Origin: Antedon mediterranea
Lineage: Eukaryota > Animalia > Echinodermata
Length of the DNA stretch: 64,000 nucleotides
Assembly (NCBI RefSeq): GCF_964355755.1
Contig: NC_092679.1
Span: forward strand, 18,025,432 to 18,089,431
Reading direction: 5' to 3'
The position numbers and the translations under genes are program-made. Position 1 is the first letter of the stretch; every line of letters starts with the position of its first letter. A model generated the notes under the pieces. The model ran no database searches and was not told the origin of the DNA. It worked only from the letters and a program-made list of their open reading frames with translations. Below, piece by piece: positions 25,194-64,000 of this stretch.

Positions 25194-27214
25194 TTATAAT
25201 GTATCTGCATTTAAACGCTGTTTAATGTGTTTATAAACAACAAAGATGACACCATTAACAGGTATGCCCCTAAACATAGTCACTGACACCCCTTTAAATA
25301 AAATACCCCAGCCTTCTTTCTTGGTACATTGCATAAAACAATCAACATAGCTCGAATAAAGTCTTGTAGAACCCACGCCATCTGCTTGCCAGCGAGACTT
25401 AATCACGTCCAAAGGGTATATAACGAACCAAGATAACGTACCAGCGAGGCCCCCTGCTACAAACAAACCTGCTGTCGATGCTTTATTCCCCGTCGAATAC
25501 GAAGCTATTTTATTCGATAAGTAGTGATCAAGGCTAAAATACACACCGGTAGACGGAACATCCCGTACGATGTTGATTCCCAATCCATGATAACAGCCTC
25601 GTAATCCTTCCTTTTTAAAAATCGTATATATTGCTTCTATTGAGTTATTGTAGTGTTTCTGCGCTTTTGCTACATGTTTTGTTCCAATGCCTTGCATCTG
25701 GAGCCTAATTTTTGTTAAGTCTAATGGACACATGAATGACGTACCTAAGAGTCCTACTCCAGCTCCAGCAATATAGTGATTTCTAGTACTAGCGCCACCA
25801 AGATATGCCAAAAAGGTTTCTTCAACACCAAAGTAAAAAGAGTTTTGAATAAGAGATGCGACGACAGGTGAAAGAAGACCTTTATATAACCCTGTTACCT
25901 ATATGAATAAATAAAAATTTAATTTACAGAACCAATTCTCATTTAACATTTTTATTTCAACAGTATTTTACGAGGGTGGTCCATCCAGTCGAAGCTGATC
26001 ATTAGGGATCCTCACAAAGATACAATATGACAAGAACATGCAACAATTAAAATTAATAGAATTTATAAAGATAAACAAAATAAAATAATGAACAAAATAA
26101 TTAGAATCAAAATGGAAATAAAATAAACAGAATTTAAATTAAATTTAAAATGTTGATTATGGTTCAATTAAACAAGCCAGTCATTTTATGTGAAAACCTA
26201 AAATGATCAAAATATCATCAAATGACGGATGTACTTTGATACCCTTTTCAGCAAAAAAGTAATGAAAAAATGCACTTACGGACTCCTGTTTTAGAATACG
26301 CAGAAAACATTCAAAACCACTTTTGTATCGTGTTACTGTGCCCTGATTCTGTAAGCGAACTAAATACAAAAATAACAGTCAAATTGAATATTCTGAAGTA
26401 TATCTTGAAAATTTATATTTTGATGGTGGGACTTGTAATTTAAATGATTTTTAGGAGTCTTAAAAATGATGGAACAGGCAAATCTCTTTCTTTGAGACAT
26501 CCCTATTTAGAGGTCGTTCCTATTAAAGTGACAGTTTTCTGTGAAATGAACAGGGTAAATTTAGGGGGCATCCCTAGCGTTTTAGGTCCCAAATGTATCC
26601 CTTTAATAGGGGTTCTACTGTATGGTGGCACAGGGTGTAGGCCTACTTACTTTTAATTGTGTCAAGTGGATGACCAACAACTGTTCCAGCAACACCTAGC
26701 ATCATTTAAAAAAAGGAGTTTAGTATTTTAATGTTATTACAGTATACAGATAGAAAGAGTGCAGTTTGTATCCAATTGTGAATAAAAAGCATACATATTT
26801 TATTTAGTGTTTTATTTCTGGGAAAATAAAAAAAGGTTAGTTAGGTTATGAAATTTTGGAACCATATTACCTCTTTTGTTATTATAGGTATTTTCATTAC
26901 TTTTTTTGGGAAAAGAAAGATTGTATTCTATAAAAAAAATTGTAGGAATCACTCAAAATTCTTAACAAAATTACATTATTACGGCAGCCAATCATAGTGA
27001 TTTGGGTAAATGACATTTGGGACAATCAATTCTCATGATTGGTAAATCACAGTTAGCAAATACTGTAGATAAAGAAATACAAATCTTTGGCCTGCGTGGA
27101 AAATAGCAATCTTTCTTTTTTTGTTGGTTGGCCTCAAACAGAATCGTGAAAAGTCAAAAGATATTTCTTACCAGCAGTGCCACCAGCAATGAACTCCGGC
27201 AGATTAAATGCCAT
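25194..27214 (-). CDS. SLC25A29: Mitochondrial carrier, SLC25A29/45/48 (basic amino acid carrier-like) subfamily, 4 coding exons
   Basis: Exons (-) 27214-27172, 26695-26651, 26359-26280 and 25898-25194 give [46 protein letters not shown]. Three Px[DE]xxKxR signatures: [24 protein letters not shown]. The exact paralog is uncertain. Confidence 0.85.
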
Positions 27215-40400: not shown

Positions 40401-43400
40401 CCTATAGGATAATCATTTATGCTGTCTTTGATAAAAATAATGTTTTTCAAATTCCAATCAAATGACGTCATGATAAATAAAAACAATAAAATCGCTGTAT
40501 TGTCACGATATTATTGGTCTTACTAATCATGACGTCATTTGATTGGACGTGTGAAAATATAATTTTCATCAAAGGAATTGTTTATATTTCTTTTGGTTTA
40601 TGTATTAAAAATGCACATTTGTCTATTTATCGTCGATCGTTATTGTCCTAGTGTATGGGCCTTATGCTGTAAATGTTCAATTAATTGATCATTCCGATTT
40701 TATTAGTTGGACTCTTGCACAGTTGCTGTCTAATTGTTGTTGTGTAATATCATTTCGAACCATATTAAAATCATAAAGAGATTCATATTCCTTAACATGT
40801 GGCTGTGCATGGAAGTCTGGTCTACACAAACTCGGGCCCGGGCCTGAAAGTGTTGGTGAATTCATAATTATACTTAATATTATATTTATATATATATATA
40901 TAATTATATTATTATACAATTGAAAGCAAAACCCGTTGAATCTCAAATCATTAGGACTAGAAATTTGGCTTATCAATCAAATAAATACTTTCGTTCAAAA
41001 TGAAACTCCAACCTCTCTAATCAAAAGATTGAACTCGAAAACGGACCGTTTTTTTGAATTGGGTATGTTGAAACATTTCAATATTCATTTAAAAAAGTAC
41101 ATTAATTACGGTATTGATCAGTGGCTATAGAGGCGTAAAAACCCTCGGTCAATATCATGTAAAACGCACTGTGGAAGGGTCATTATTAAGACTGCAAAAT
41201 TGGGCTTATCAACAAATAAATACTTTCGTTCAAAATGTAAAATCAAGGCTGAAAAATTGGGCTTATCAACAACAAAATATTTTATTATTAGACGCGATAA
41301 CATCAAGGATAATCAGTATAATTATTAATATAGCCACTGTTAATAGTTTTATTCTACATGCTAAAGTAAATAAAAATCCACTAGAAAACAAGCAAGTCTG
41401 AATGTTATGCTTATTAGCCATTCTATGTTTGTTACTGTAGGCCTATGATTGTTTGCAATGTCCACATATTATTTCCGTGGGCATATCCATAGTGTATCAC
41501 TCACAAAAAAGACGTGTGAGGTTCTTTCTTTAGATTTTGAAGAATGATTTGTGTTACAGGTTCACACAAGAGTCAAATGCTCAAGATATCAGCTAACGCC
41601 ATGGGACCCTTGGCTTATCAATGAATAATAAATACAGTACTACTTTCGTTCAATTGAAATCGGAATCTGACCGTTTCATTAAATTGGGTGTGATTAGGCC
41701 TAAACATATAATAATTTATTAAAAAGGTACAATAAAAACAAATGCATCAGAGGCGTAAAGAACCCACGGTCAATATCATGTAAAATGTATATGGTATAAG
41801 CACTGTGGAAGGGGTCATTATTATTAAACTGGAAAATTCGGCTTATCAACAAATAAATACTTTCATTTAAAATGTAAAATAAGAATGCAAAATTGGGCTT
41901 ATCAACAAATAAATACTTTCGTTCAAAATGTAAAATAAGACTGCACAATTGGGCTTATCAACAAATAAAATACTTTTTTTTCAAAATGTAAAATTAAGAC
42001 TGGAAAATTGGGCTTATAAACAAATAAATACTTTTTTTCAAAATGTAAAATTAAGACTGGAAAATTGGGCTTATAAACAAATAAATACTTCCGTTCAAAA
42101 TGTAAGAAAACATTTTTTAAATATAATCCTTAAGCTCTGTCTATACTATCAAACTAAATATGATGTGCCCATATTATATAGACATGACGATGTCATATCA
42201 CTACGATATTCGGGCATATCACTACCATATTTGGGCACATCACACTTTTTTTGTTAAACTAGTTGGGACAGTGTAGACAGAGAACTATGCGATCGAAACA
42301 TAAGTCGGAATTGGACTGACGCGATTGATTTAATTGGGTATTTTTATTAATGTAATGATTCATTAAAAACTATAATACCGATACGCGTTTGGTATTGATC
42401 AATGGTGCAAAAAACCCTGAGAAATAATGTTATAACGCGATTTGGTGATAGCTTAGCAATAATACAACCCATATACTATTATTATAAATACCTATTACAA
42501 ATCCATTCATATAACTTTTCATCGCGAACCGAAAATGTATTAATGTTATTCTACAGACAGTAATTATATATTCAAAAGCCATATTATTATTATTATCAAT
42601 ACCTAAATGCGATAGTAAATAACCACATACATTATTCCCAATACAAGTTTGTGCGTTTAATTCTAGAAAGAAACGACTGTGCTGACAGGCCAATGACATA
42701 AATCACAATTAGTAAAGTCCCAATTGTTCACTTGCGTTTTGATTGGCCGACCTATTATATTAGATTAATGAAGACTGTTCTTACAACTGTCCAGTCAAAA
42801 AGTTACGCGGCGTTTTTTGTAAGAAATATTTCTTGTTCAATATTATTTTATATGCTAGCCCAAATTTGCATAACAAGACTACACATATTGCCTGGTGCAT
42901 GTCTTGTTGAGTAAGCCTAGATGTGGTCAGCCAATTAAACTTGATAGATGATATTAAGTTGGCTAGTTTGGTGTTTAGATAAGCTAGTACAGTAATAATC
43001 TGATTTCTGATAAAGGAAACAGAATAGGGGAATCTTTTTTATTTAACCATCTAATAAAAATTTAGAAAGATGAGAACCGGCCAATAGTTTGATAGTGTTT
43101 CAGTTTTAATTTCTGGTTACAAATGACTTTTGATGGAATGAATTGCGTGACTTGTATGACATGATTAAATAATAACTTTCACAATCTGACTTTCTCATTT
43201 GATTCTACTTTCAGATTCGGGCCAGGAATGTCAAAATGCAAAAAATTGTTGTTTTAACCATGATTAGAAACATTCCAACAGTTGGTGTTGGTAAGTTTGA
43301 ATTATCAATTAATCAAGAATAAGACAATTATGCAAACAATAAAAATCAAACAATAATAAGTTCGAAGAATTAAAAAAACATATGAAAAGTGCATCTTCAT

Positions 43401-46400
43401 ACTTTCATACTGTCCCAAAAAATAATTCTTAAATATTGTTATTCACATTTACTAAATTCATTAAGGCATTTTGTCAAAATGTTTAGCACTGACACTAACT
43501 GAAATTAAAATGTTATGTTTTCATCCATTTCGTAAGGCTATTTATTAAGATAATTTTTTTTTTAAATTTTTTTTTGTTTTATTAGTCTTTATTTTTGAAG
43601 TTTTTGGGGAAAATACATCTTTAAAGATTAATTGTTTTTTTTTTAGGTTTAGAAGTTAAAAGCCGACATGTAAGGATATGTTTATTTGATGGAGAAAAGG
43701 TTAGTTTTAGTAGTAGTAGTTTTTAGTACAATAATCAAATTTTGAAAGATCCATATTTTGCTCCTTAGTACTCTACTGTGTATTGTTTTAAATGGGAAAA
43801 ATTCGACCCTTTTTTTTATAACGTAACTTGTTACTATGACACTACAAGATTATCAAAATAATAGTCCATATTTTGCCCATTTAAAAAAAAAGATGAGTGG
43901 GATTGGAGATGTGGATGGCTTGACCACTTGAGCCACTATTATTATAATGGTTTTTTTTTTTGTTTAGGTTCTTAGTAATATCCATACAATACAGGCAACT
44001 TGGACGGAGGTAGATGAAAAGTCTTGGAGGTTTTCACCTAAGGTAAAATCTACATTGAAATTTAATAGAAACTGATACAAACAATAAGAATGTTACATAC
44101 TGTGGAACTAAGGCGTGGAAAAAGATTAAGTATGCTACACACTGCAACTAAGGTGTGGAAGAAGATAAAGAATGTTACACACTGTGCAACTAAGGCGTGG
44201 AAAAAGATTAAGTATGCTACACACTGCAACTAAGGTGTGGAAGAAGATAAAGAATGTTACACACTGTGCAACTAAGGGTATGTTCAGACCTACGGAGTTA
44301 TGCTTTCGTATCACAGCCAAGGTCATATTTTAATGAGCGTCGTAAGAGCAAAGTGTTCAGATTCATTGCAACGAAGTTGCGTTACAAACGGATATGATGT
44401 CACTCGCTGGCGATTAACCAAACTCTAACGCACGTATAGACCTAGGCCTACCTTCGTTGTTATTAAAAGTAGTAGTGGTTGGGGTAAGAGTTACAGGCCT
44501 AGACCGAACACTTGGGCTCGGCATTATCGATGGGTTGTCAGGCATACCAACCAGCCGATCGTTTTGGGGTTTGTTTTTATATTTGGTCTAGGCCTAAAAT
44601 ATCATTTATGGCAGAAAAATGTTCAAATCCCGTACTTGCACCGGCTCCAGACTTATTTACTCGGTCTTTCGCTGCTTTATACGACGACCCCTTCAATTTC
44701 GTTTGGATATAATTTAAATCCTTCTTTATTATGAGGATGGCCCATCTGCTATCTAACGTGTCCGCCATCTCGTTGAACACAGACATCTTGTTGCCGGTGC
44801 TTTTACGCCAGTTTTTCACTTCCAACCGATCTCTAAACTCAGGGCTTCCCACTAATGAAATAAGGTATTTTACTTCGGTTTCTCGCCAATGCGCACGCTT
44901 CGATGACATTTTAAATTAATTAATATAATAATATTAATAATAATAATACTGTATACCTAGTGTAACAACAAACAAAAGGTATGATTTTTTCGCACGTTCA
45001 CCGATCACAACAAATGGATCAGCTTGGCTGTACGATGAGGAGCACATGTCACGATGTGATGTGGCGAATATTGTAATTTGATTGGCTAGATATCAAACCT
45101 AGGTCATATTCATCGATGCGTGACTTTCGTATTGTAAGCGACGTCCACTAAACTCATACCTTGAGCTTTCGTAGCGTACGAAATATCAGTGTCGTACGAG
45201 GTGGCTTCCACTAATCTTTTCCTGGTTCAGACCTATGGACTTGTACGCCGCGTACAATACGAAAGCATAACTCCGTAGGTCTGAACAGGCCCTAAGGCGT
45301 GGAAAAAGATTAAGTATGCTACACACTGCAACTAAGGTGTGGAAGAAGATAAAGAATGTTACACACTGTGCAACTAAGGCGTGAAAGAAGATTCCAAACA
45401 TGATAATAAAGTACTTTCTGTACAAACTAGATAAACAACACTTTCTAAACTCAAACTGATTATTCTCTTTTGTCCAAGAATTTATTTATTATTTATATAT
45501 ATTATTTATTTATCATTTACCATTTATTAATTTTTTACAAATTTAATTTGTAATAAACAAATAGTTACTTTTCCAAGATAGGGTTTGTGAATGTGTGTAA
45601 ACAATGAAATATCTTGAAAATACTTGTTGAAGCTGCAGCACTCATGTGTCCCTTTTTACTCCATTATAACAATAAATTAAATTTATCATAGGTAATTGGT
45701 CAGATGTTTTGCCCGTCTCTGATGTAATTTGTACTTGATACAGTTAGTAGTACATTGAGAACACTTAATTTTCGGGTGGGTCTTGAACCCACAACCTCCA
45801 GATCACTAGGCTAGTGTCCATACCTCTATACCACCGAGCTTGCACTGATGGCTTTTCAATCTACTTAGTATAAAGTACAAATTATGTCAGAGTAGGGGAA
45901 AACATCTGACCAATTACTTAACACCCTGATGCGAAGCTATTCCACAGTCATTTTTCAATTCAATTACAATCCTATAATCATAGGTAACTGGAGTTCTTCC
46001 AAGTATTCTGGATGGAGAATGCTTTATTAGGACAAATAAAACAGATGAGAATTTAGGTAAGACTAATACAGTATATATTTTTATTGTTTGTCTGCAACAT
46101 GAATAACACTGACTTATCTGTTTACACACACGTCCTTACCATGTATCAGGATCCCCTATTATTTTAGGTTGACTTATCCTGTTTTCTTAAATTAAATGGA
46201 TATATTTTGTTGATGTACAAGAGTTCTGTTATGTACATGTTATCTAGATTGGTCATGTGATCAAATTTCAAATTTTTTTTTAGGTTTATTGATTGAGGTG
46301 TGTTTATCCTATGTCAGAACGGTAAGTTTAATTTTTAATCTCAATCTTTCATTGTGTGGTCCAAATCTCTCCATATTATGCATATTTTGAAATGAATAAA

Positions 46401-49400: not shown

Positions 49401-49731
49401 GTCCGGTATTGGGAGAGTTGACTGTAGTAATATAATATTAATGATATATAAATATTGTGTTCTAACAGGGCTTATGAATTAGATGTTAAAGGTGGGACAC
49501 CTTATGAACAAGATGTAGACGTTGATCCTTCAATAAGTCGAAAAGGTAATAATCATACTCTAATGCTCAATTATCAAAATATTTTGTGCCCCAAAGCACT
49601 ACTCATTGACATTATTATATTTAATTTACAGCTTCTACCAGTAAACTGCGTTCTATGTTGTCGGCTAACAAACAACCGCGATTATCGCTCAAGTTAGTAA
49701 CACCAACTAAAGAACAAAAGACGTTCATGGA
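28472..49731 (+). CDS. NPHP1: Nephrocystin-1 (ciliary transition-zone protein: coiled coil, acidic region, SH3, NPHP1 homology domain); 3' part not found in the window
   Basis: In-frame GT-AG exons: 28472-28531, 29010-29101, 29433-29568, 29674-29735, 30038-30634, 31830-32004, 32305-32378, 33277-33397, 33484-33578, 33766-33835, 33926-33971, 34318-34345, 35368-35410, 36585-36669, 37388-37479, 43215-43290, 43647-43699, 43968-44042, 45984-46056, 46284-46321, 46545-46630, 49469-49545, 49632-49731. SH3: [33 protein letters not shown]1-specific: [66 protein letters not shown]. Confidence 0.93.
32530..33035 (+). mobile_element. 5'-truncated LINE 3' end (Rex/Babar-like C-terminus) in an NPHP1 intron
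   Basis: [31 protein letters not shown], followed by aataaa and a (atcttgt)n tail. Confidence 0.6.
35631..36510 (+). mobile_element. 5'-truncated CR1/L2-group LINE with an (AATC)n tail, inserted into a MITE (35525-35630 and 36511-36547)
   Basis: [43 protein letters not shown], an (aatc)n tail at about 36485-36510, and atatt repeated at both junctions. Confidence 0.85.
40303..40661. mobile_element. Degenerate foldback MITE (ggccc termini, Harbinger/PIF-like)
   Basis: ggccca..tacactatgacgataacga ... tcgttattgtcctagtgtatgggcc, with internal inverted blocks ccaatcaaatgacgtcatgat / atcatgacgtcatttgattgg. Confidence 0.7.
41825..42105. repeat. Minisatellite of about 57 bp (5 units), with further units at about 40955-41000, 41190-41275 and 41610-41655
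   Basis: Unit ctg(g/c)aaaattgggcttat(c/a)aacaaataaatactttcgttcaaaatgtaaaat(t)aaga. It produces spurious repetitive ORFs. Confidence 0.85.
42133..42283. mobile_element. MITE with agctctgtctacactatcaaact-type TIRs; family also at 49981-50131 and 35525-36547 (split)
   Basis: Shared termini and internal atatcactaccatatttgg.ca subrepeats. The 49981-50131 copy has clean TIRs with TA/TAA flanks. Confidence 0.75.
44276..45292 (-). mobile_element. Non-autonomous PIF/Harbinger DNA transposon carrying only a Myb/SANT-like ORF
   Basis: 36-bp TIRs ggg(ta/cc)tgttcagacctacggagttatgctttcgtat, TAA target duplication at 44273-44275 and 45293-45295, and no DDE nuclease ORF. Confidence 0.88.
44577..44909 (-). 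CDS. Myb/SANT-like (trihelix) DNA-binding protein of Harbinger type, possibly truncated
   Basis: [51 protein letters not shown]. Confidence 0.7.
   Translation of the reverse strand: MSSKRAHWRETEVKYLISLVGSPEFRDRLEVKNWRKSTGNKMSVFNEMADTLDSRWAILIIKKDLNYIQTKLKGSSYKAAKDRVNKSGAGASTGFEHFSAINDILGLDQI
45692..45917. mobile_element. MITE with TIRs of about 55 bp enclosing a tRNA-like core
   Basis: gtaattggtcagatgtttt..ctctga..taatttgtactt / aagtacaaatta..tcagag..aaaacatctgaccaattac. The minus-strand core has tggtatagagg (A box) and ggttcaagacc (B box). Confidence 0.7.
46908..48519. mobile_element. Non-autonomous Kolobok-like DNA transposon (1.6 kb) inserted in a tRNA-derived repeat
   Basis: TTAA duplication at 46904-46907 and 48520-48523. 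Imperfect TIRs agggggattctggggtttaaaat / attttaaacccggaacccccct. The host repeat resumes after the insertion. Confidence 0.8.
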
Positions 49732-50772
49732 GTAAGTTAATCTTCTTTTTGTTTCTGTAGGGTAATAAATTTAAAGTAACATTTTTCAGCAGCTTATTGA
49801 AAGATCACACAGAAGACAGTGGACAGTAGTCTAGTAAGTCATTCTTAGCCTGTTGTATCGTCATACTGTCCTGTTTAACATTTCATAAAGGTAAAAAAAA
49901 AACAGACAATTGTTTCTGCAAATGTTTGATAAATTTATTATTTAAAATACACTCATATTGCATAGTATGTACAATACTAAAGCTCTGTCTACACTATCAA
50001 ACTAGTGTGAAGTGTGAAGTTGCCCAAATTTGGTAGCGATATTCTCAAATATGTGACATCATCATGTCCATATATGGGCACATCATTTTTTTGGTCACAT
50101 AATGATAAAGTTTGATAGTGTAGACAGAGCTTTAGGTCCGTATCTTTGATATTTAAAAAAAATTAGTTTAACGGTTTCTCAAGTTTTTTTTTATACTTGT
50201 GACCTAGTTTTTAATGTAAAAACTCCTAGTACTATGACAAGATTTGAACTCGGTACCCTCAGATTTGTAAGCAAGAATGTCAACCACTGAGCTACAGTAC
50301 ATGCTACTTATTACATTGCATCTTATTTTATTCAGGTATAAAACAAATATTGGATCATATAAAATTTAAACAAGAAACATCAAAAGACATAAATACAAGA
50401 AACATCAGCATTTTGCATCATTTGTTATCTGAGTAAAATTTCCATTAAATATTACAAACACTTTTTTTAATTCTATATTACTTTGTTATGTCATGTCAAG
50501 TGCAAAAATCTACAATAATAATTTTGAAATGTTTTAATATACCAAGTTATTACGTTTTTTTCATTGTATTAAGCACTATTTTCATAGCGCTTTGACATAT
50601 ATACATATATATTACATAAAAACAACAAAATAAAAAGTATGGAAAAACAACAAAATCCAGGTCCCCCCACAACTGTTACCATGCCAGGCGGGGAAACGGA
50701 ATATTATTATTATTATTATTAATTAAAGAAATGATTAGGTTTTTTACAATATAGTTTAGACATTTTGTTTTT

Positions 50773-52857
50773 TCAGTCATGTGGGTCTTTAATATTAGTA
50801 TAAGGCGTGTAAGCATAGCATGTAAGATTATTAATCTTTGATGTTTCAATAGGAATCTCACAGTACAGGTGTGAGTCATTACTACTGATACCTTCAAAGT
50901 CCAAATTTAATGAGCCTGGTTGTGGTGGTGGTGATGCTTCTTTTGCAGTAGTTGGCAAAGGATATGATAGTGTAATGATAGTGTCATTACCTTGTTGTCT
51001 GTTTTCCGTGTTACAGAATTTCGGAGTTGGTTCGTTGCGAAAAATCATACTTTCTTCCAATTTTTGCATTAGGTCTAATCTAGAAATTCCAGATGACAGA
51101 TTTCCTGAAGGGATTTCTGAAGGAAGAATCTTTGTTGACATCCTTGAGTCCAAAGTAGCAATTCCAGGTTCCTTTGAAGGTATTCTTGAGGCATGAGCTC
51201 TAGAAGATCTTGCATCTATAGTTTTTGACCCATTCAGAATTGGTTTCTTAGCCGTTAGTGGTTTTTGCTTTAATGTATTGAAGTGAACACCCAATTCTTG
51301 AAACTTTAGTGGTTGATTGTCAGTGGGAAGTACATTGTTATTGAAAGACAATTTCGTGTCATCATCCATCTTTTCTTTCTGTTTCTCGCTTTCCATACCT
51401 TGAAAAAAATCATCATTGATTTGGTTGTAGACATTTTCTTCATTACAGTTCACAGGTGTTTTTGACAGTATTGTATCTGACTGTTGGATGTTTTGTATTT
51501 CATTATCAATTGAAACTTCTTGGTTTTGGTATTCATCATCTGTGTCTTGAATGCATTCACTACCTTCTGTTTTTTCAATGTCCAGCTTATTGGTGTTTTG
51601 CCCCTTATCATTATCAGCAGCAGCAAAATCGTCATTGATTTGGTTGTAGACATTTTCCTCATCACAGGTTGTAGATGTCTTTGACAGTTTGAGATCTGAT
51701 TTTTGGATGTTTTGAATTTCATTATCATTAAATGCTTGGTTTTCATATTCATCATCTGCATGTTGATTGCATTCTTGCTCATTTTGTGTTTTTTCAATGT
51801 CTAGCTTGATGGGATTTTTCAGCTCAACATTATCAGCACTTGGATCAAATGAATCATTGGTTACATCTGTGGAGTTGTTTGACGATGTTCTAAATTTATA
51901 ACACAGAATTAAAATAACTAGAATCAGTAAGAGGATGCCTACTACTGTAACTACTATGATTTTTATGTAATTTTGTGTAGATTTTTGTGAATTTTCTTCA
52001 ACTTTATCATCTTCTGGTTGAAGAATCTTGTATTCTGCAAATCCATGTACGTCATTAGAAGATGTCACATGACATGTCAACTCACTGTCACTCATTTCAT
52101 CAGTGATGTTCAAGTTGAAATGTGATGTGTTGACAAGTAGATTGGTATTGTCTATTGTCCAGTTGTAAATGCATTCAGAACAATTATGTCCAGTCTTGCA
52201 TTGGAAAACTACCAACTGTCCGATTTTAAGATCATCATTAACAACAATTGTCACTATAATTTTGACTTCAATGGCCTCTAAATAACAACTTTCATCTCTC
52301 TCATTACCATTTAGTGCCATTTGACAGCGAAATATTTTTTTGTTATCCTCCTCCTTGATCAACCATGTGTTTTTACGAGTAATATGAGTACTATTTCTGA
52401 AGTCCACTCCATCCTCTAAAAAGCCTTTCCATCGTAGTGTAGGGTTTAGGTTCATGTGCTCAACTTGGCAAACAGCAGTCATATATTCACCAACAGTATA
52501 ATTGTATCGCTTTGAAAAACAAGACTCTTTTGGAAGAACAGTTAAGTAAGCAATGTTTGATTCCTGGATTAATTCTGTTCCAGAATATACTTCACATTTG
52601 TACTTGCCTGAGTGTGATGTATTTACTTTTGAAAATTGCAACTTAAACACGAATTGTTGTCCTTGTTGTTCTTTTACTAAACTGTCGTCATTCTTTATCC
52701 ATTTAACGTTGTAATCAAGTTCTTTGTCAATGTGACATTTCAATGTGGCATCACCATCTTCAAAAATTGTCACATTCGATAAAGTAACTGTAGTCCCTGA
52801 GGCATTTCCCAACGTAATTGTAGTTATGATGATAAGAGTGATTATAAGGAAAGACAT
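50773..52857 (-). CDS. Ig receptor A: single-exon type I membrane protein with 3 Ig-like domains and a long Tyr-motif cytoplasmic tail
   Basis: Signal peptide MSFLIITLIIITTITLGNA (likely ATG 52857, after an acceptor-like ag). Ig1 ATLKC..VKW..HSGKYKC; Ig2 AVC..LRW..FRC; Ig3 FQC..YNW..LTCHV. TM IIVVTVVGILLLILVILILCY. Tail of about 370 aa. Confidence 0.85.
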   Translation of the reverse strand: MSFLIITLIIITTITLGNASGTTVTLSNVTIFEDGDATLKCHIDKELDYNVKWIKNDDSLVKEQQGQQFVFKLQFSKVNTSHSGKYKCEVYSGTELIQESNIAYLTVLPKESCFSKRYNYTVGEYMTAVCQVEHMNLNPTLRWKGFLEDGVDFRNSTHITRKNTWLIKEEDNKKIFRCQMALNGNERDESCYLEAIEVKIIVTIVVNDDLKIGQLVVFQCKTGHNCSECIYNWTIDNTNLLVNTSHFNLNITDEMSDSELTCHVTSSNDVHGFAEYKILQPEDDKVEENSQKSTQNYIKIIVVTVVGILLLILVILILCYKFRTSSNNSTDVTNDSFDPSADNVELKNPIKLDIEKTQNEQECNQHADDEYENQAFNDNEIQNIQKSDLKLSKTSTTCDEENVYNQINDDFAAADNDKGQNTNKLDIEKTEGSECIQDTDDEYQNQEVSIDNEIQNIQQSDTILSKTPVNCNEENVYNQINDDFFQGMESEKQKEKMDDDTKLSFNNNVLPTDNQPLKFQELGVHFNTLKQKPLTAKKPILNGSKTIDARSSRAHASRIPSKEPGIATLDSRMSTKILPSEIPSGNLSSGISRLDLMQKLEESMIFRNEPTPKFCNTENRQQGNDTIITLSYPLPTTAKEASPPPQPGSLNLDFEGISSNDSHLYCEIPIETSKINNLTCYAYTPYTNIKDPHD

Positions 52858-53584
52858 CTTTATTGCTGCCATGAACCAGATGCACACAATAGTGTGTCAC
52901 ATTATTACAGAATGGAAAGAATAAAGTAAAGTGGATTATATGATAGAGGGTGCTATTTATGCAATCATAATAAACATGATTATACTTAAACGACATATGA
53001 AACCAGTTTTATTGAAACATTTACTTTACCTTAATTACAAGATGTATATTTAAGTTTGTTACCATTTTCTGTTCATAATTCACCAAATCTACTTTCCTTT
53101 AAAGTCAACTTAAAATCACACCTTTTCAGATTTTTTATTTACCTTGCTTTATTCTTAAGTGCCCTTTGCTAAATTGTTGAATTAGCGCTATATAAATTTT
53201 TGTTATTATTATTTCAATAAATTGTTTTTGATCATTTTGTAATATGTCAGTTTCCATTTGCTACTATTGGGATGTGATTCCTCGCTCCCCACCCATACAC
53301 AGAATTAATGGTTTCTAGTTCAAGGCAAAGACTGATGACACATCAATTGGCATGACCTACAGTAGTGAGGGCGTCAGTCTTTTTTGTCACAGGTTGTGGT
53401 ACGATTATGAGTTTTTTATTGTGTTTTAGTAGTGGAATTCCCGGGCTTCATACCACTCAAGAGTACACAAGGCGCTTTAAAAAAATGAAATTCAATATAC
53501 AATATCTGGCTTAATAATACGCAATGTCTTTGGAAGGTCACCCCTTGTTGCATCAGATGGTCAGATGTTGCATATTTAAGCTAA

Positions 53585-53760
53585 CATTTGATATTGTTGT
53601 CTCTGAAGGTTTCCCCAGTCTAATTGTAGTTTTTTTATTTATTATAACTTTTATTTTGATACGTATGTACTGTGCACTGTTGTTCATTCAACTGTAATAA
53701 GCATCTCTTTTGGTTATAATGGTACACCTTAAAAGGTAGCATCATCATATTCAAGAACTG
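53585..53760 (-). pseudogene. Degenerate fragments of an A/D-type Ig receptor 5' end
   Basis: Minus strand TTIRLGKPSETTISNVS (about 53585-53635) versus D TTIRLGKTSTTTISNVT. VLEYDDATF (about 53730-53760) versus VLEDEEETL / IFEDGDATL. Disrupted and out of order. Confidence 0.5.
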
Positions 53761-53765
53761 ATATA

Positions 53766-54300
53766 ATCAATCAATCAATCAATCAAATTAACATTTATTT
53801 CTTCCGCAGTAAAATAACAACAAATATCCAATGTAAATTGTAATATGAAGAAAGAGGGAAAAACTCAAAAAGTAACGCCAGATGAAAAATAGAAAACTAT
53901 TAATCAAAAGACCTTGTGACAAGCAAGCCCTAAATGATAAATATAAATAAGAATTACAAATTAATTTACGTACACAAACACACAGACAGGGCAAGAAAAA
54001 AGAAGAAAAAAGGAACAAACGAACATGGGATATAATATAAAAGCTGAGGATGGTATAAGCAACATTTTATAAATCATATTTTGACAAAAGAAATTTTTTG
54101 GCTTTATAAGAGAAAATTTTCCTGGAGGGGGTTGCAATGATTTCAGGAGGAAGGTCATTATATAATTTAACACCGCTATAACGGACGTTGTGTTGGATCA
54201 ACGTAAGTTTGGGCTGAGGAAGATGAAGTTCTAGTAGAATAGGAGTGAAAATCTGAGGAAGAAGCATAAATTGGAGGGAAGAAGAGAATGCAAAGCTTCG
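53766..54300 (-). mobile_element. LINE (CR1/L2 group) 3' fragment with a (TTGA)n tail
   Basis: LHLPQPKLTLIQHNVRYSGVKLYNDLPPEI..FSYKAKKFLL, then a 3' UTR and microsatellite tail at 53766-53787. Confidence 0.7.
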
Positions 54301-54561
54301 TAAACAAAGATATAAAAATGGAACAATCTCTGTGCAGGCCACTGAGTTGTCAAATGCATCTTTAAAAAACCTTACCAACCGTACTGGTGGCTATGGCCCT
54401 GATATTACTTCAGCATATTTGTGCCCTAGCCCTTATTTTGTCCTCAAATCATACAGTTAAAGTTAAACTGACATTAAGGCTTTAGAATGTTCGTGAAGAA
54501 GTCAACACTAAAAATCATTCCTATAAATATTTAACATAATCAACAATAGCACAGCTAATTA

Positions 54562-55952
54562 TCAGAATTTGTTGTTATACATTGCTTCAGACTTCTTCTC
54601 TTTTACATGTCCATAGGCATATGCATATTCAGGGATAGCTTCAAATGTGGTTTGTGTTTTTTCAGTAGTTTCTTGTGCATCTTTTATTGGTAGAGATGTT
54701 TGGTAGAAAGGGGATTCTTCCACCTCTAAATATATTGCAGTTTGGGCTGGTTGGTTAAAATTTGCATATGCATATTCAGGATCTTTATTCAACATGGCAC
54801 TGTGTTGACACCGAATCATATTCTGGTGGGAAAGAGTTTGTAATAAGATTTGACATGTCTTTACTTGTACACATTTTTTTCTTTTAGTTTTAGACATTCT
54901 ATAGATAATTATTGTTATAATGATAATGAGTATTAAAGCACATGCAACAATGATGCATAAATATATGGTATCCACTTTACTCCTTTCATATGGCTCATGT
55001 GTAACTGTAGATATAGAAGTAGCTTCTTCACCTGTTTCATTGTTTTCACTGTTATCAACTAGTATCACATATGAATCTGATCCATGTACATCATTAGAAG
55101 ATGTCACATGACATGTCAGCACACTGTTAATCATTCTATCAGTGATGTTCAAGTTTAGTTGTGATGTGTTACCCAGGTGTATTTGCATTCTGGACAACTG
55201 TGTCCAGTTTTGCAGTTGAATGAGGATAACTTTCCAACTTTAGAATTGCCACATGTAACAATTGTCACTTTTATCTGAACATTTATTAATACTTCACAGT
55301 TTCCCTTTTCTAGGTCTTCAAGGTGGTGATGTGTCCCCTGATTTGTCACATTTAAGATACATGCAAAATGCAATAGATTAAACATTTCTTTAACCAAAAA
55401 CTCATTTTCTAAACTCAAGTGGGTTGCATTGTTGTTTCTTTTCAAAGAAATATTTGTGTTAACATTCCATTGCAGTCTTTGAGAATCAGTAGAAAATCCT
55501 TCAATGATCTTTGAGGCACAGTACAAAATCAGCACATCTCCAACTATGTAGAATGCTTTGTTTGATTGACAAGTTGGTGTAGGAAAGGCAACCACATTAA
55601 GTACAGCAGGCTTAGAAGAATTTAGAATGATGTTGGAACTATTGATGGCATGGCAGCTGTACTCTCCAGAATCTAACAATGTGACTTCTGGTATACTGAG
55701 TTTACATGAGTCATTCTCCTCATCAAAATCTACTTGAATCTTACTTGTTCCAGGATGTAGCGTGTTGCTGTCATGTTTCCAAAAACAAGTAAAATCTCGT
55801 TTCCAATCTGAAAACACACAAAGGAATTCAGCTGTTCCTTCTTCTAGAATATTCTTATCTGTTGGTTGATAAAAAAGATGAAGATCAAAGCTAATTACTG
55901 AACTTAACAGTAAAAAGATCGTGGAAGATGTTGATACAAATTTTAAATTCAT
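54562..55952 (-). pseudogene. Ig receptor B: 3-Ig/TM/Tyr-tail gene frameshifted in Ig3; could encode a 265-aa secreted 2-Ig protein
   Basis: ORFs 55952-55155 and 55197-54562 overlap out of frame. Relative to paralog C, 25 nt are missing at about 55177. The tail is also shortened in frame. Confidence 0.8.
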
Positions 55953-56735
55953 TTTTTAATATAGCAGAGCAATAATACAGTGGACAACAGTTTCCTTTTG
56001 TATACACTGGTTATTTGAATCTATTTTATTTGATTTATAGCCTTGATTTACATCTAAGAACACAACTGAATTTTGTAGGCATTTTCAACCAAAGTTGGTT
56101 TCATTTTCATTTTGCAATCCGCTGAAATAATAATGTTAATGGCCAGCCATAAGCTTGAAAAAAAGTAAATAACTAAACCAAAATTTCCATTAATGCTGAA
56201 TCAATTTCAGCCACTGTGAATGCAAAATTAAGCAAATATAGTTTTTATTAGAATGATATTCTATTCTAATTTTAATGTATTTGTTTATTTTGTATGAATC
56301 AGTCATTTTTAAACACAAATTAATTTGTTCTGATCTTTTTTGACAGTGCCATGAGCAATGATTGATACAAGTGATTTTTTATGTAATCCTTATTAAAAGA
56401 CAAAGTGTTTTTACAAATATCAGATCAACTAAATTACACTTGATTCAAAATGTCACAGGTCACTATAAGACGTTCGTCGGCTTTTTTAGAGGAACCATTC
56501 AATTATTTTTTTAAATTGCATTACATTTACAACCAGATTTGTTGTGCACAAAATCTTATTGAAACATTATATTCCTATAGCATTATTTAAAAAAATTGAG
56601 GCCAATAATTATTTTAGATATGTTGATTTGAAAGTGAGTTAGCCTTTTTATTTTTAATAATATTACAAGAAATTATTGAGAGTCACAATTTAATTTGGTC
56701 ATAAAAGTTTTTTCAACAAAATTCAACCTTGCATC

Positions 56736-57810
56736 TTCAGCTACAGACTTCTTCTCTTTTACGTGATCATATGCATACTATATTACATAGCCTATGTAAA
56801 TACGTGAACGTGATTGGTTTAAACTGCATCACATGACTACCGCTGCGAGGATCGTAAATCGTATATATCCTCGTGTACGATGATATTGACTGGGTAATTG
56901 TCGCGTAATTATCGTGTCCCTGTCATTAAACATAAAATCCAGCAAATTTTCGAGTACGATGATATTGACTGTGTAATTTTCGTGTGGCAACACTCGCATT
57001 TGGGGATGAATAAACAAAAGTTATCTACTGGGTCTTGAAATCGCGATGAAATTTTCACTCCATCACAAGACAACGCTTCATGCGCTGTGCCACAGAACTT
57101 GCTTAAAGAAATTAATCAACTAAACTATTTAAACTATGCATACATAGCGCCCTTATTTGTTATTAGTCCTCCCTAGATGTGATGAAAGACCGTTTGTGAT
57201 TGGTTAATACTCACGGTAGTAGTTAGTTATGCGCGACGTGGCGAACATCCGGTGATTCGGCTCGAAGAAGACGAATTATTCGGCCTACCTGATTATAATA
57301 TTATTGTTAATGTAGGCTTATTGATGGAAATTCTTCTGTTAATTTAAACGACCTAGACCTAAGTGAATATTTTATTGCCAAGGAATCATTTAATTAGTAA
57401 TTATCTGTATATTATTCTTCACAACGTAAGGTGAATTCAACGCCTAACTACTGTAGGCAGGCTTATTACAATACAAAGGAGGCCTAGCTACACCCGACCC
57501 AGCAGTAGATATTCAACTTGTTGTTGGCAATGTAATATCACATTAACAGATATCGCCTTTTATATCGGTAAAATATAAGATTTGACATCCCCTTGGGAAT
57601 GATATTTTTTTCGATGGAATATATTTCCCGAAATGTTAAGGGAAATATATTCTATCGAACAAAATATCATTCCTAAGGGGATGTCAAATCTTATATTTAA
57701 CCTCTAAGTCTAAGCAGGCAAAATCTGTATAATATTCAGGGATATGTAGTTTCTTGTGCATCTTTTATTGGTAGAGATATTTGGTAGGTTGCATATGCAT
57801 ATGAATATTC
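56736..57810 (-). pseudogene. Remnant Ig-receptor cytoplasmic tail split by an insertion of about 950 bp
   Basis: 56736-56778 (ttcagctacagacttcttctcttttac..) and 57732-57810 (atattcagggata..gtagtttcttgtgcatcttttattggtagaga) match the B/C/D tail sequence. Confidence 0.6.
56780..57733. mobile_element. Non-coding insertion with a subterminal near-perfect hairpin (possibly a non-autonomous Crypton-like element)
   Basis: It interrupts the receptor remnant and has short imperfect ends attacatag/ctgtataat. Hairpin arms of 59 bp at 57571-57629 and 57640-57698. The superfamily call is tentative. Confidence 0.55.
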
Positions 57811-58155
57811 ATAACATTGAAACTACATAAATGACATACGAAACCAAATTTTTGTTTTATGAACATTTTTATTTATATACAATAAAACAAGTGTTTTTGA
57901 ACAAATACAAAGCAACAAAGAGAGTAATATTAAATAGGAACATTATGAAAATAATTATGACTAATAACTATTTCTGATTTGTACTATAGCTATATTGCTT
58001 CAAAATGTTTGTGACCTAGCCCTTATTTTGACCTCAAATCGTACAGTTAAAGTTCAACTGACACTAAAAGTTTTAGAATGTTCTTGAAAAAGTCAACAGT
58101 AGAAATCAGTCCTCTATATATTTAACATCATCATTAACAATGGCACAGCTAATTA

Positions 58156-59695
58156 TCAGAATTTGTTATTATACATTGCTTCAGACTTCTTCTCTTTTAC
58201 ATGTCCATAGGCATATGCATATTCAGGGATAGCTTCAAATGTGGTTTGTGTTTTTTCAGTAGTTTCTTGTGCATCTTTTATTGGTAGAGATGTTTGGTAG
58301 ACAGGGGATTCTCCCACCTCTAAATATATTTCAGTTTGGGCTGGTTGGTTACAATTTGTATATGTATCATTATCTTTATTCAATATGGCACTGTGTTGAC
58401 AACGAATCATATTCTGGTGTGAAAGTGTTTGTAATGAGATTTGTTCTGTGGATGAAACATTTGGTACTAGATATTCTGATGACATTGAATCTTGTTTTAC
58501 CACTTCATCTGTTGTGGTGAAATCATCTGGACTACACTGAGTTGAGATGTCTTTATTTCTACACCTTTTTTTCACTTTCTTTCGTTTAGTTTTAGACATT
58601 CTATAGTTAATTATTGCTATAATGATAATGAGTATTAAAGCACATGCACTGATGATGTATACATAGATTGTGGCGATAGAATTAACTTCTTCATCTGTCT
58701 CTTTTTGTTTACCACTGTTTGTCTGGCTGCAGTTATTGTCATTAGTGTTATCAGGTTGCATCACATATGAATCTGATCCGTGTACATCATTAGGAGATGT
58801 CACATGACATGTCAGTAGGCTGCCAATCATTCCATCAGTGATGTTCAAGTTGAGTTGTGATGTGTTGCCCAGTTGACCTGTAATGTTCATTGTCCAGTTG
58901 TATTTGCATTCTGGACAACTGTGTCCAGTCTTGCAGTTGAATGAGGATAACTTTCCAACTGTAGAATTGCCACATGCAACAATTGTCACTTTTATCTGAA
59001 CATTTATTAATACTTGGCAGTTTTCCTTTTCTAGGTCTTCAATGTGGTGTTTCCCCTGATTTGTCACATTTAAGTTACAAACAAAATGCAATATTAAACA
59101 TTTCTTTAACTAAAAACTCGTTTTCTAAACTCAAGTGGGTTGCATTGTTGTTTCTTTTCATATTTATAGAAGAAATATTTTTGTAAACATTCCATTGCAG
59201 TCTTTGAGAATCAGTAGAAAATCCTTCACTAATCTTTGAGGTACAGTACAAAATCAACACATCTCCAACCATGTAAAATGCTTTGTTTGATTGACAAGTT
59301 GATGTAGGAAAGGCAACCACATTAAGTACAGCAGGCTTGGAAGACTTTAGAATGATGTTTGAACTATTGATGGCATGGCAGCTGTACTCTCCAGAATCTA
59401 ACAATGTCACTTCTGGTATACTGAGTTTACATGTGTGTCTCTCCTCATCAAAATCTACTTGAATCTTACTTGTTCCAGGATGTAGTGTCTTGCTGTTATG
59501 TTTCCAAAAACAAGTCAAATCTGGTTTCCAATCTGAAAACACACAAAGGAATTCAGCTGTTTCTTCTTCTAGTGTATTTTTATCTTTTGGTTCATAAAGA
59601 AGATGAAGGTCAAAGCTAGTTGCAAAACTCAGCAATAAAACTATGGTTAAACTTAAAAGATGTTTTGATGCAGTTTTCTGAAACATGTTGATCAT
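58156..59695 (-). pseudogene. Ig receptor C: paralog of B, frameshifted in Ig2 by a 2-nt deletion
   Basis: B reads caatagattaaacatttc and C reads caatattaaacatttc (about 59092). ORFs 59695-59075 and 59091-58156 otherwise give signal, 3 Ig, TM and Tyr tail without stops. Confidence 0.8.
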
Positions 59696-61584
59696 GCAAT
59701 CAATTTATAAATTGATTGTTTTCCAGTTATACAATTAATTTACTTTTGAGTTTTATAATGTTTAATGAAGCAGTAATTATATTTTCTGTTTCAATTTCAT
59801 AGATTGGCGGCCAATAAATCATTGAACTAATTGTCACTGATTGATTGATAGGTGAATGTGAAATGTGATGATACATTATTTCAAGTTCAAGTAATTAAAA
59901 AATAATGTGTTACGTATAGGGCATACTAAATTTCTCTGTGTGTGTGGGATTATATTATTTGTGGAGGGTGTGAAGATTGTTTGTTGTTTCAATGATTAAC
60001 CCCACACCACATAAAACCCATGAGTTGTAATGCCTACAATTTTGTTTTACTTTATCTGCTAGCTTTGTCACCTCAGTTTAGCAATTTGGTTTTTGTAATT
60101 AAAACGTTGTCAATAATTATTGACATATTTTTCTCTAATTGAAGTACTGTACCACGTTTATTCAAGGAAGGTGTTTAATTTTGGGTATTAGTCAAACTTC
60201 CTTGACCTGAAAAAAAAAACACAATATCAAGAAATTATAAAATACAGTACAAATTATTAAAAAACCTGCCACACAATATTGTAGTACTGTATAAAATAAC
60301 ACATTTCTATTTATAGTAGAATTTTACAATATGTCTCCGAACAATAAACGCCTGGGCACTTATTCGAATAAATACGGTATAGTTTCATACCTTTTTTCTG
60401 AGTGGTGGATCAATGAATTTTAAATAGAAAGATTTACTATTTATAAAGTAATAGTAAGTGCTAATGAACCGTGTAGGTAAGGTTTCGGTGAAATATCTTG
60501 TCAACTAATTGTCTGTCAGCCAATTGTCTGTTGCGAAATCATTTTCGACGAAATGTCCTGTTAGTGAAATGTCCAGTCGGCGATTTGTCCGGTTGCCTAA
60601 ATGTCTGTCAACTAAATGGCTTTTGACAAAATGTCTAAGAGTACCGTTTATTCAAGGAGGTCCCGGGCATTTATTTAAAGTGGGGTGTTTATTCAAATAA
60701 ATATGGTATATGGTACTTATTCAAGAACAATGGATGTAGGTAAAGGGTCACTATTGTACATCTCGCATTTAAATATTGTCTCTAGTTTCAGAATAATGAC
60801 TCAATTTATTGAAACAATAACTATGGTATTAAAATACATACATATTTATTTATTACGTTTTTAATACAAAAAGGTTACTTAAACTCGAACACAGTAAAAC
60901 AAAAGTTTAATTTGGGTCAGTGATTAAGTATGGACTTATACTGTTATAGCTTCTCCTGCATTTAAATGATTTCCACTTATTCCTATTGTGTTTGTAACTG
61001 TCATAATAATAATAATAATAATAATATGTATTTATTTAGCACGTACACAAGGCATGTTAACATGACTGTACATTGGTTTTGGTATGGTCGCCTGTGCGTT
61101 GTCTAAATTAGGTCTGTACCATTTATTAGTGTATGTACTACATATACTAATAAAATAATGATACTCGTAAAGTTTTTTGGAGGATTAAAAATAGCTCCTT
61201 GCCAAGTAGATGGGGGTTTTCCCTTTTATTACGCACCAAGTATCCCAGCATCATGTGCAAAGTTACGTGCAATGATACGATACAATGAGAAAATTTAAGA
61301 AATTTACACCTCTAGATGGCTGGAAATTGCACTCATCATAATCAACACTTCAGAAAATACATATTCCATAAAATATTGAGGGGACCATGACCCCATAAAA
61401 AATAACATTGAAACTACAGAAATGACATACAAAACCAAATTTTTGTTTTATGAACAATTTTATTATATACGAAACAAGTGTTTGTATACGAAAACTACAA
61501 CGCAACAAAAGTATTTAAAATAAATTAAGATAGCATAAAAGTAGTACATCTAATCATCAATTTCATAATTTATGTAAAATTTGA

Positions 61585-62994
61585 CTAGTTAATATACATA
61601 GTGTCAGAGATTGCTTCAGCTATAGACTTCTTTTCTTTTACATGTCCATAGGCATATGCATATTCAGGGATATCTTCAAATGTGGCTTGTGTTTTTCCAG
61701 TAGTTTCTTGTGCATCATTTATTGGTAGAGAGGTTTGGTAGACAGGGGATTCTTCCATCTGTAAGTGTATTGCAGTTTGGGCTGGTTGGTTAAAATTTGC
61801 ATATGAATATTCATGATCTTTATTCAACATGGCACTATGATGACAACGAATCATATTCTGGTGTGAAAGAGTTTGTAATGAGATTTGTTCTGTAGATGAA
61901 ACATTTGGTACTAGATATTCTGATGGCATTAGCTCCACCACTTCATCTGTTTTGGTGAAATCATCTGGACTACATTGGGTTGACATGTCTTTATTTCTAT
62001 ACCCCTTTTTCTCTTTATTTCTTTTAGTTTTAAACTTTTTGTAGATAATAATTTTTATAATAATAATGACTATTAAAGCACACGTACCAATGATGTATAG
62101 AAAGGCATCATCCAGTTTTTCACCTATTTTTTTGTTTTTATTATCAGTATTATCTTCTGGTTGAATCTTGTATTTTGAAAATCCATGTACATCATTAGAA
62201 GATGTCACATGACATTGCAACACACTGTCAGTCATTTCATCAGTGATGTTCAAATTGAGTTGTGATGTGTTGCCCAGTAGATTGGTATTGTCTTTTGTCC
62301 AGTTGTATTTGCATTCAGAACAATTATGTCCAGTTTTACATTGAAAAACAGATATCTCTCCAATTTGAAGATTATCATTGGCAACAATTGTCACGTTGAT
62401 TACGACTTCAATGGCCTTAAAATCACAGATTTCATCTATCTTATGAACATGTAGTGTCATTTGACATGAAAATTCCCCCTTATCATCTTCTTCTGTAATC
62501 AACCATGTGTTTTTGCGAGTAATATGAGTACTATTTCTGAAGTCTTCCCCGTCCTCTGAAAAGCCTATCCATCGTAGTGTAGGGTTTAGGTTCATGTGTT
62601 CAACTTGACAGACAGCAGTCATATATTCACCAACAGTATAAGTGGGTATTTTTGAAAAACAAGACTGTTTTGGAAGAACAGTCAGGTAGGCGATGTCAGA
62701 TTCCTGGATTAATTCTGTTTCAAAGTAAACTTTACATTTGTACTTGCCCGAGTGTGTTGGCTTCACTTTTGAAAATTCCAATTTAAACTGTATTTGTCGC
62801 CCTTCTTGTTCTTTGAATACGCTGTCTTCATTTTTTATCCATTCAACCTTGTAATATTGTACTTTGCCATTAATAATACATTTTAATGTTTCTTCTTCAT
62901 CTTCAAGAACTGTGACATTTGATATTGTAGTCGTTGATGTTTTTCCCAGTCTAATTGTAGTCATGATGATAATGGTAATTATAAGGAAAGACAT
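61585..62994 (-). CDS. Ig receptor D: intact single-exon 3-Ig type I membrane protein with an A-type ectodomain and B/C-type tail
   Basis: Signal MSFLIITIIIMTTIRLG (likely ATG 62994). Ig1-3 are colinear with A. TM AFLYIIGTCALIVIIIIKIIIY. Tail EYLVP..EYSYANF..VYQTSL..EYAYAYGHV. Confidence 0.87.
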   Translation of the reverse strand: MSFLIITIIIMTTIRLGKTSTTTISNVTVLEDEEETLKCIINGKVQYYKVEWIKNEDSVFKEQEGRQIQFKLEFSKVKPTHSGKYKCKVYFETELIQESDIAYLTVLPKQSCFSKIPTYTVGEYMTAVCQVEHMNLNPTLRWIGFSEDGEDFRNSTHITRKNTWLITEEDDKGEFSCQMTLHVHKIDEICDFKAIEVVINVTIVANDNLQIGEISVFQCKTGHNCSECKYNWTKDNTNLLGNTSQLNLNITDEMTDSVLQCHVTSSNDVHGFSKYKIQPEDNTDNKNKKIGEKLDDAFLYIIGTCALIVIIIIKIIIYKKFKTKRNKEKKGYRNKDMSTQCSPDDFTKTDEVVELMPSEYLVPNVSSTEQISLQTLSHQNMIRCHHSAMLNKDHEYSYANFNQPAQTAIHLQMEESPVYQTSLPINDAQETTGKTQATFEDIPEYAYAYGHVKEKKSIAEAISDTMYIN

Positions 62995-63024
62995 CTTTTT
63001 AGCTACCATGAAAAAGGTGCACAC

Positions 63025-64000
63025 AGCAGTGTGTCACATAACAGAATGGAAAGCAAAAAAGTAAAGTAGATACTGTAGATAGAGGGTGCTATTTACACTG
63101 GCTATAATAATGGACATTGTAATATATTCATATTAGCAATTTAACGACTGGATTAGAGACGAATAAAGGAGTTCTACAAGATGGCTGAACATCAGCACAT
63201 GGTCTAATTTTTTTCTTAGTAAAATACTTAGTGTTATCATTCATTCTAAGAGCACAATATATAACAGACATGTTGATACCTGTTGTTGATGAAATATGAA
63301 ACCAGATTTATTGAAACATTTATTTCCTTAATTACAAGACGTATATTTAAGTTCTAGGTACAAAAAGCAATATAAAAACGGTATTGACAAATGTTACAAC
63401 TTGCAAATGACTACTCATCAGCTTTGTGCATCCTCTAAACATCTATTGACAGTTCCATCTATTCAGCATAAAACCAATACACCAATACATGGTCAACATG
63501 CCTTTCAAGCCCCTCTTGTGTGGAACTCATTACCATTTTATGTTTGTAACCTACTTTTCTTTAAAGTCAATTTAAAATCACATCTTTTTCAGGTTTTTTA
63601 TTTAGAAGCTTGCGTTATTTTCAAGTGCCTTGCTAAGTTTTTGAATTTGATATATACATTTCTGTTATTATTATTATTATTATTCCAATAAATTTGTTTT
63701 TGATCATTTTGTAATATGTCAGTTTCCATTTGCTACTATTGGGATGAGATTCCTCGCTTTCCACCCATACACAGAATTAATGGTTTCTAATTCAAGGCGC
63801 TGACTGACGACACATTGATTGACCTGACATAGTTTGGCCGTCCGTCGTTTTTTTTGTCACTTTTATTTATTACGTAATATGCAATACTACTGCATACACA
63901 GACTTAGTAAATTGTAAATTTTTCTGTTAAACCTGTACTGCAACTACTGTATATTCAATGGCGCAGATCTGTTTCGAAAGGTGAGGTTGTGGTACGATTA
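63025..64000. repeat. Upstream flank of D duplicated with that of A (52888-53410), including a shared L2 3' fragment
   Basis: Shared blocks: gtgtgtcacat..acagaatggaaag, atagagggtgctattt, tttattgaaacattta, ttaaaatcaca, gatcattttgtaatatgtcagtttccatttgctactattgggatg, aggttgtggtacgatta. Confidence 0.85.

Follow-up and report, generated by a model that had tools for sequence, protein, structure and literature searches.

The window analysed here, a stretch of 64,000 nucleotides from the feather star Antedon mediterranea (contig NC_092679.1, positions 18,025,432 to 18,089,431 of the forward strand), contains a tandem cluster of receptor-like genes of the immunoglobulin (Ig) superfamily, all on the minus strand. 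Two of its four genes, A (50773..52872; 699 aa) and D (61585..63009; 474 aa), are intact and each is read in a single stop-free frame; shuffling the bases of the region 100 times gave no such frame longer than 160 aa. The other two are frameshifted, each as judged against the other copy. Gene B (54562..55952) lacks 25 nt that C has, near position 55179 in the third Ig domain (Ig3) and between short direct repeats, and its first frame stops after 265 aa, before the membrane helix. Gene C (58156..59695) lacks 2 nt that B has, near 59093 in Ig2, and its first frame stops after about 206 aa. If translated, both products would end before the helix. The open frames and the two deletions confirm the arrangement described in the initial annotation of this DNA, which had listed two remnants besides; we count three, namely a D-like N-terminus (53584..53630; 87% to 62915-62961), the end of a tail of the type called beta below (56735..56777) and a beta-type tail with an internal deletion (57746..57787). 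With two of the four copies frameshifted and these three remnants, the proposal of local tandem duplication accompanied by gene death is supported.

As had been proposed, A and D are predicted to be type I membrane proteins, each with three Ig domains. Both have a hydrophobic N-terminus and one membrane helix by hydropathy, with no dedicated predictor applied, and in both each of the three domains has a Cys-Trp-Cys core. In A, the signal peptide (52795-52872) is followed by Ig1 (52534-52788), Ig2 (52273-52533), Ig3 (52024-52272) and the helix (51901-51960); in D, Ig1-3 span 62931-62164 and the helix 62103-62041. Ig1 scores above the Pfam cut-offs in all four copies, and Ig2 and Ig3 give weak Pfam matches, the best of them in D (E 3.6e-4 and 0.009, respectively). 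An AlphaFold model of the D ectodomain shows three beta-sandwiches at a mean predicted local distance difference test (pLDDT) score of 77, Ig2 being the weakest, and it matches the fold of Ig domains with Z 11-13. As its alignment was seeded with generic Ig proteins, the model is supportive rather than independent; a first model from five sequences (pLDDT 33) was set aside. The cytoplasmic tails are rich in tyrosine, with nine in A, nine in D and 8-9 in each of the four.

The four copies, which had been described as one uniform family, fall into two ectodomain types and two unrelated tail types. Ig1 and Ig2 of A and D are 65% and 74% alike, respectively (73% for the whole ectodomain at the protein level), and B and C, of the second type, are 87% alike in Ig1, whereas between the types Ig1-2 are only 21-27% alike. 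The tails divide differently. Those of B, C and D belong to one type, beta, with 113 of 142 residues identical between D and C (80%), while the tail of A, type alpha and about 370 aa long, is unrelated to that of D (best BLAST E 0.79). Because D shifts from A-like to C-like in its stalk (62105..62150, from three-way informative sites), it is probably a chimera of an A-type ectodomain with the helix and tail of the B/C type, or else A has gained a new tail; the exchange could have run in either direction. Upstream of D (63010..63860), the DNA shares blocks with that upstream of A (52873-53390) over about 800 bp, which argues that the copies arose by DNA duplication.

Ig3 departs from this division into types. 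A patch of it (62190..62310 in D) is 72-95% alike in DNA among the copies and is a probable conversion tract. Four-fold degenerate sites in Ig3 are identical between types at 16 of 19 positions (A-C) and 18 of 22 (D-C); in Ig1 the figure is 1 of 8, and in Ig2 it is 2 of 6 or 2 of 7. The close relatives that we found, two translated European Nucleotide Archive fragments of A/D type (P0039) and B/C type (P0088), show the same pattern. Each lies on a 6,725-base contig, probably one and the same. Between the two fragments, Ig2 is 20% alike and falls by type in the tree (support 100/99), whereas over its first 34 residues Ig3 is 79% alike and clusters by organism (87/96, under the star threshold of the tool; quartet sites 7 to 1). 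Both types would therefore be older than the split from this relative, with Ig3 apparently passing between copies inside each genome. The initial annotation contained neither the division into two types nor the chimeric D nor the homogenisation of Ig3. Both fragments read across domain borders in one frame, which suggests that the relative has no introns at these borders either; since they end abruptly, the genes may be broken or the assembly faulty. Likeness between the domains of the relative and the cluster copies is 43-62%, against 87% for the conserved part of NPHP1 between two crinoid families, so that turnover of the cluster looks fast, unless the relative is a distant one. In P0088, similarity breaks off directly behind the CxxC of Ig3, close to the place of B's frameshift (55179); chance, a faulty assembly or a repeatedly taken route to a secreted decoy could each explain this.

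The cluster very likely sits inside an intron of NPHP1. A query with a 43-residue exon found two crinoid NPHP1 proteins, and that of A. mediterranea (XP_071962380.1, P0001) matches plus-strand exons at 28472-49731 without mismatch over residues 1-585. The last exon in the window (49632-49731) ends in GA and is followed at 49732 by a GTAAGT donor, confirming the splice site first noted there, and P0001 continues with Asp. The window shows no credible counterpart of its last 167 residues, 586-752 (best E 0.23, on the wrong strand), as had been reported for the next expected exon. Since the protein runs on and these residues are absent, an NPHP1 gene ending before the cluster is rejected, and the intron would extend from 49732 to beyond position 64000. 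It would thus measure at least 14.2 kb, compared with about 5.7 kb for the largest earlier NPHP1 intron. The NPHP1 model of Anneissia (P0002) ends at the very exon that precedes the cluster and runs into the same stop. This hints at a difficult intron there too, which may be large or home to a similar cluster.

Several other features lie in and around the host gene. A large, acidic and Lys-rich NPHP1 exon (29994-30638, plus strand) belongs to isoform X1 (P0153) and is left out of X2 (P0001). Just inside the cluster intron is a short, very high-copy repeat with inverted structure (49978-50135; related copies at 35524-35631 and 42128-42282), and a repeat in another part of NPHP1 carries a minus-strand Myb/SANT-like frame (44577-44915; E 1e-5) within an intron, which we take to be a piece of a Harbinger-type transposon. 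Head-to-head with NPHP1 lies an SLC25 mitochondrial carrier gene (25194-25898, minus strand), seen as a large exon of 233 codons behind a splice acceptor. An 891-aa frame at 9159-11834 (minus strand) contains an APE-type endonuclease domain and is likely a non-LTR retroelement reading frame. Finally, a Ser/Thr kinase of about 284 aa is encoded in a single frame at 19411-20265 (plus strand; Pfam Pkinase E 2e-67); we presume it to be TSSK-like.

The intact genes show purifying rather than diversifying selection. Between the ectodomains of A and D, the ratio of nonsynonymous to synonymous substitution rates (dN/dS) is 0.38 (bootstrap 95% range 0.25-0.55), which supports coding constraint; between B and C it is 0.51 (0.26-1.05). 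Variation between samples was seen in sequencing runs, of which five were covered and none is listed as holding RNA. Three of these (X2-X4) represent one sample whose listed cluster pieces show 0-2 differences from the window, and it is possibly the source of the window rather than an independent individual. Run X1 comes from another sample, also covers repeats and non-coding DNA, and is RNA only by our guess; eight of its pieces were available, five on cluster genes or their upstream DNA and three in repeats. One X1 contig aligns to C at 58824-59256 with 438 letters on 433 bases, including 5 gap letters and 41 other differing letters, at depth 5.5. The net gain of five corresponds to the 2 + 3 bases that C lacks relative to B, with no such gap at the site of B's 25-nt loss, and is consistent with a B/C-type copy that is in frame across this span; this is arithmetic on the letter counts of a single contig. 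Since B and C differ at only 23 places within the span, such a copy would be a third allele or a paralogue. Against the A tail, X1 shows differences at 14 of 282 bases, but against D and its upstream DNA at only 16 of 1,292 (Fisher p 0.0002), or 12 of 960 for D alone, and a paralogue could be the cause of the excess in the A tail. The X1 piece on B shows 12 other letters and 9 gap letters. Summed read depth was discarded as an estimate of copy number, which, according to the tool itself, it does not measure.

Searches by sequence and profile found no one-to-one orthologue among named proteins, in support of the view that the genes belong to no named family. With D alone as the query, there was no match among 3,512 candidates, and a family profile gave three matches among 7,992 scored, one of them close. 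A full HMMER search returned 3,106 matches, of which the best 150 were inspected and consisted of 148 generic multi-Ig proteins and the two close relatives described above; weaker true relatives could rank lower. Among JGI metagenome contigs, 62 pattern matches yielded none that was confirmed. Fold searches likewise named no single family, and the neighbours by sequence, Atlas and fold were generic Ig proteins of both adhesion and immune kinds. A match to PirB (E 2e-6) was at the level of generic Ig similarity and ranked behind adhesion proteins. Membership in the FGFR/FGFRL1 group was rejected, as there is no kinase domain and hhalign to FGFR gave 63% probability at 22% identity, and membership in the IL-1 receptor family was rejected because neither A nor D has a TIR match at E up to 1. 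A and D are absent from the protein collection that holds the NPHP1 of this species (0 of 4 exact look-ups, and no near match). However, the exact sequence of the neighbouring kinase is missing from it as well, which makes this absence weak evidence. No description of the family was found in the full-text literature searched, most subscription papers being beyond reach, and crinoids are unmentioned in the accessible sections of a review of the invertebrate Ig superfamily (PMC11999971).

The tails suggest signalling through phosphotyrosine. That of A contains a 72-aa unit in two copies (51406..51838), each with DDEY(E/Q)NQ and EENVYNQI, and has one immunoreceptor tyrosine-based switch motif (ITSM; TPYTNI) besides four YxxI sites, of which EENVYNQI accounts for two, and three YxN sites. 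In B, C and D the tail shows an EYAYAY cluster together with two or three YxN sites. Overall, the motifs include YxxI/V, and most tyrosines are preceded by acidic residues. Judged by SH2 specificities, this pattern is of the docking-protein type, Grb2-type and with Src-type substrates. The helix of D has a lysine near its inner end, a putative adaptor-recruiting site, where B and C have Thr or Ala. A loose precedent is an amphioxus receptor reported to promote phagocytosis via Grb2 (PMC10199209).

Among known systems, the closest in logic are the paired Ig receptors of vertebrates (PIR/LILR, KIR, CEACAM1/3). Like these, the cluster combines tandem copies, pseudogenes, homogenisation of only part of the gene and, in A and D, a largely shared ectodomain with unrelated tails. 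Unlike them, it has no introns in its coding sequence, its sequence resemblance to them is at the generic Ig level, and no canonical immunoreceptor tyrosine-based inhibitory or activation motif (ITIM or ITAM) occurs in any of the four tails. Membership in the ITIM/ITAM Ig receptors (LILR, KIR, CHIR, NITR) thus fails on tail motifs. The same lack, together with the finding that no domain has dN/dS above 1, speaks against the strict form of the likeness to KIR and LILR drawn in the initial annotation. A further difference is that the cluster homogenises the membrane-proximal Ig3 between types, whereas paired receptors are described as homogenising ligand-binding domains (PMC3210942). The Alr genes of Hydractinia are clustered and encode Ig-transmembrane proteins with Tyr tails, with pseudogenes and domain shuffling (bioRxiv 10.1101/2022.03.04.482883). 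However, Alr genes have one exon per domain, often lack the core disulfide and include an Fn3-like region, in contrast to the single frame, Cys-Trp-Cys cores and short stalk of the cluster, whose proteins gave no Fn3 match in the Pfam scan; membership in the Alr family was rejected. In Botryllus, fuhc-tm combines a helix with three Ig domains in tandem, and the FcoRs have YxxI/L/V core motifs in long tails (PMC12065747). The tail of fuhc-tm is short, though, and the FcoRs have IgV and sushi domains with ITIM/hemITAM; the link of Botryllus to the cluster is a language-model resemblance only.

Within echinoderms, Ig-bearing membrane receptors for microbes are on record (PMC8699970, PMC13673367). 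The sea-cucumber AjNLRC4, an Ig-TM-NACHT membrane receptor, binds bacteria through its Ig region (PMC8699970) and signals through a NACHT domain, for which Pfam scans of the cluster gave no match. Sea-urchin Toll-like receptors (TLRs) are single-exon genes in tandem, about a quarter of them pseudogenes (PMC3367398). They are leucine-rich-repeat-TIR proteins in hundreds of copies with positive selection detected, whereas the cluster encodes Ig proteins without TIR in four visible copies. As such arrays are known in echinoderms, the loss of introns is less exotic than the initial annotation held. Its statement that the genes are intronless stands for the coding sequence, A and D each being a single frame; introns in untranslated parts are possible. 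The initial annotation also proposed a retroposed founder, which stays a candidate origin: of the signs of a retrogene, the coding sequence is intron-free, and no poly-A remnant was found near the stops, the only run of eight or more A lying 581 nt past the stop of A. Expanded families of Ig receptors with tyrosine motifs are also said to be described in the sea-urchin genome papers.

Taken together, the cluster is real, very likely nested, under constraint and structurally richer than first described. At even odds in our estimate, its genes encode phosphotyrosine-signalling, lineage-specific receptors for non-self recognition, which would work like paired receptors outside any named family. 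Ig1-2 would bind a ligand, microbial or on a cell surface, and clustering of the receptors would let Src-type kinases phosphorylate the acid-flanked tyrosines of the tail. Adaptors with SH2 domains could then dock: going by the usual meaning of these motifs, Grb2-type at YxN and, in A, SHP/SAP-type at YxxI and the ITSM. A and D would see similar ligands and send different signals, as paired receptors do. In these intron-free genes, the shared Ig3 and stalk could serve as a zone of crossover, where an ectodomain acquires a new tail and where deletions and remnants also arise, so that diversification would proceed by recombination between copies. A more specific version is a tentative proposal: a crinoid paired-receptor system in which two ancient heads are kept across species, recombination in intron-free genes swaps alternative phosphotyrosine tails through a shared Ig3 hinge that has been homogenised repeatedly, and the combinations of intact copies vary between individuals.

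Several points weigh against receptors for non-self. The four copies visible in the window are far below typical immune expansions, and mosaicism and conversion occur in any tandem array, whatever its function. No domain of A and D has dN/dS above 1 (0.34, 0.33 and 0.49 for Ig1, Ig2 and Ig3), although pairwise averages are blind to a few selected sites, and the tails, as noted above, are without ITIM and ITAM. In addition, the neighbours by sequence and fold are generic, with adhesion molecules leading (titin, contactin, Robo, Otk, PECAM-1; NCAM and IgLON are also among the best). The genes might accordingly encode molecules of adhesion or guidance particular to this lineage, acting like nectins, IgLONs or Robo, with tyrosine tails that link cell contact to the cytoskeleton and with duplication and decay being incidental. 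Purifying selection and the persistence of both types in the relative would fit, but no orthologue was found among named proteins, and frameshifts, tail swapping and rapid divergence are unusual for core adhesion genes; we regard this explanation as unlikely.

Less probable still is an allorecognition locus in which type 1 and type 2 would be linked partners, either ligand and receptor or co-receptors, like Botryllus fester/FcoR or Hydractinia Alr. Both types do lie on what is probably one contig in the relative, X1 differs by 5% in the A tail, and a chordate cluster labelled 'histocompatibility ligand transmembrane form' ranked second and third in the Atlas search (0.93 and 0.91, without alignment). 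However, Atlas scores of 0.90-0.94 are shared by many unrelated Ig proteins, the low divergence of X1 from D noted above is unlike an allorecognition ectodomain, and feather stars are solitary. Gamete-surface recognition proteins, expressed together with a ciliary or flagellar host locus, would suit the ciliary host gene, the single-frame kinase nearby, with its presumed TSSK label, and fast lineage-specific evolution; the long signalling tails with their many tyrosines, the lack of any sign of positive selection, and the antisense position of the genes, with upstream DNA of their own, make this explanation very improbable in our view. We give equally little credence to a silent, decaying array without current function. 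Half of the copies are frameshifted and A and D are missing from the protein collection, but the kinase is missing too, the constraint between A and D speaks against decay, and a frame of 699 codons has been kept open.

Crinoids are the earliest-branching living echinoderms, and no description of their cell-surface immune receptors was found in the literature searched. The locus also exposes a blind spot of annotation, as antisense genes in a large intron encode intact proteins that are missing from the collection holding the host gene. Should the genes turn out to be silent or to encode ordinary adhesion molecules, the locus would be worth no more than a tidy case of tandem gene mosaicism. 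If the tentative proposal of a crinoid paired-receptor system holds, this would be the first variable Ig recognition locus in the crinoid class of echinoderms. As a small, intron-free cluster with a visible swap between ectodomain and tail, it is easy to amplify and genotype, and it allows a direct test of whether paired-receptor logic has arisen again in a non-chordate deuterostome.

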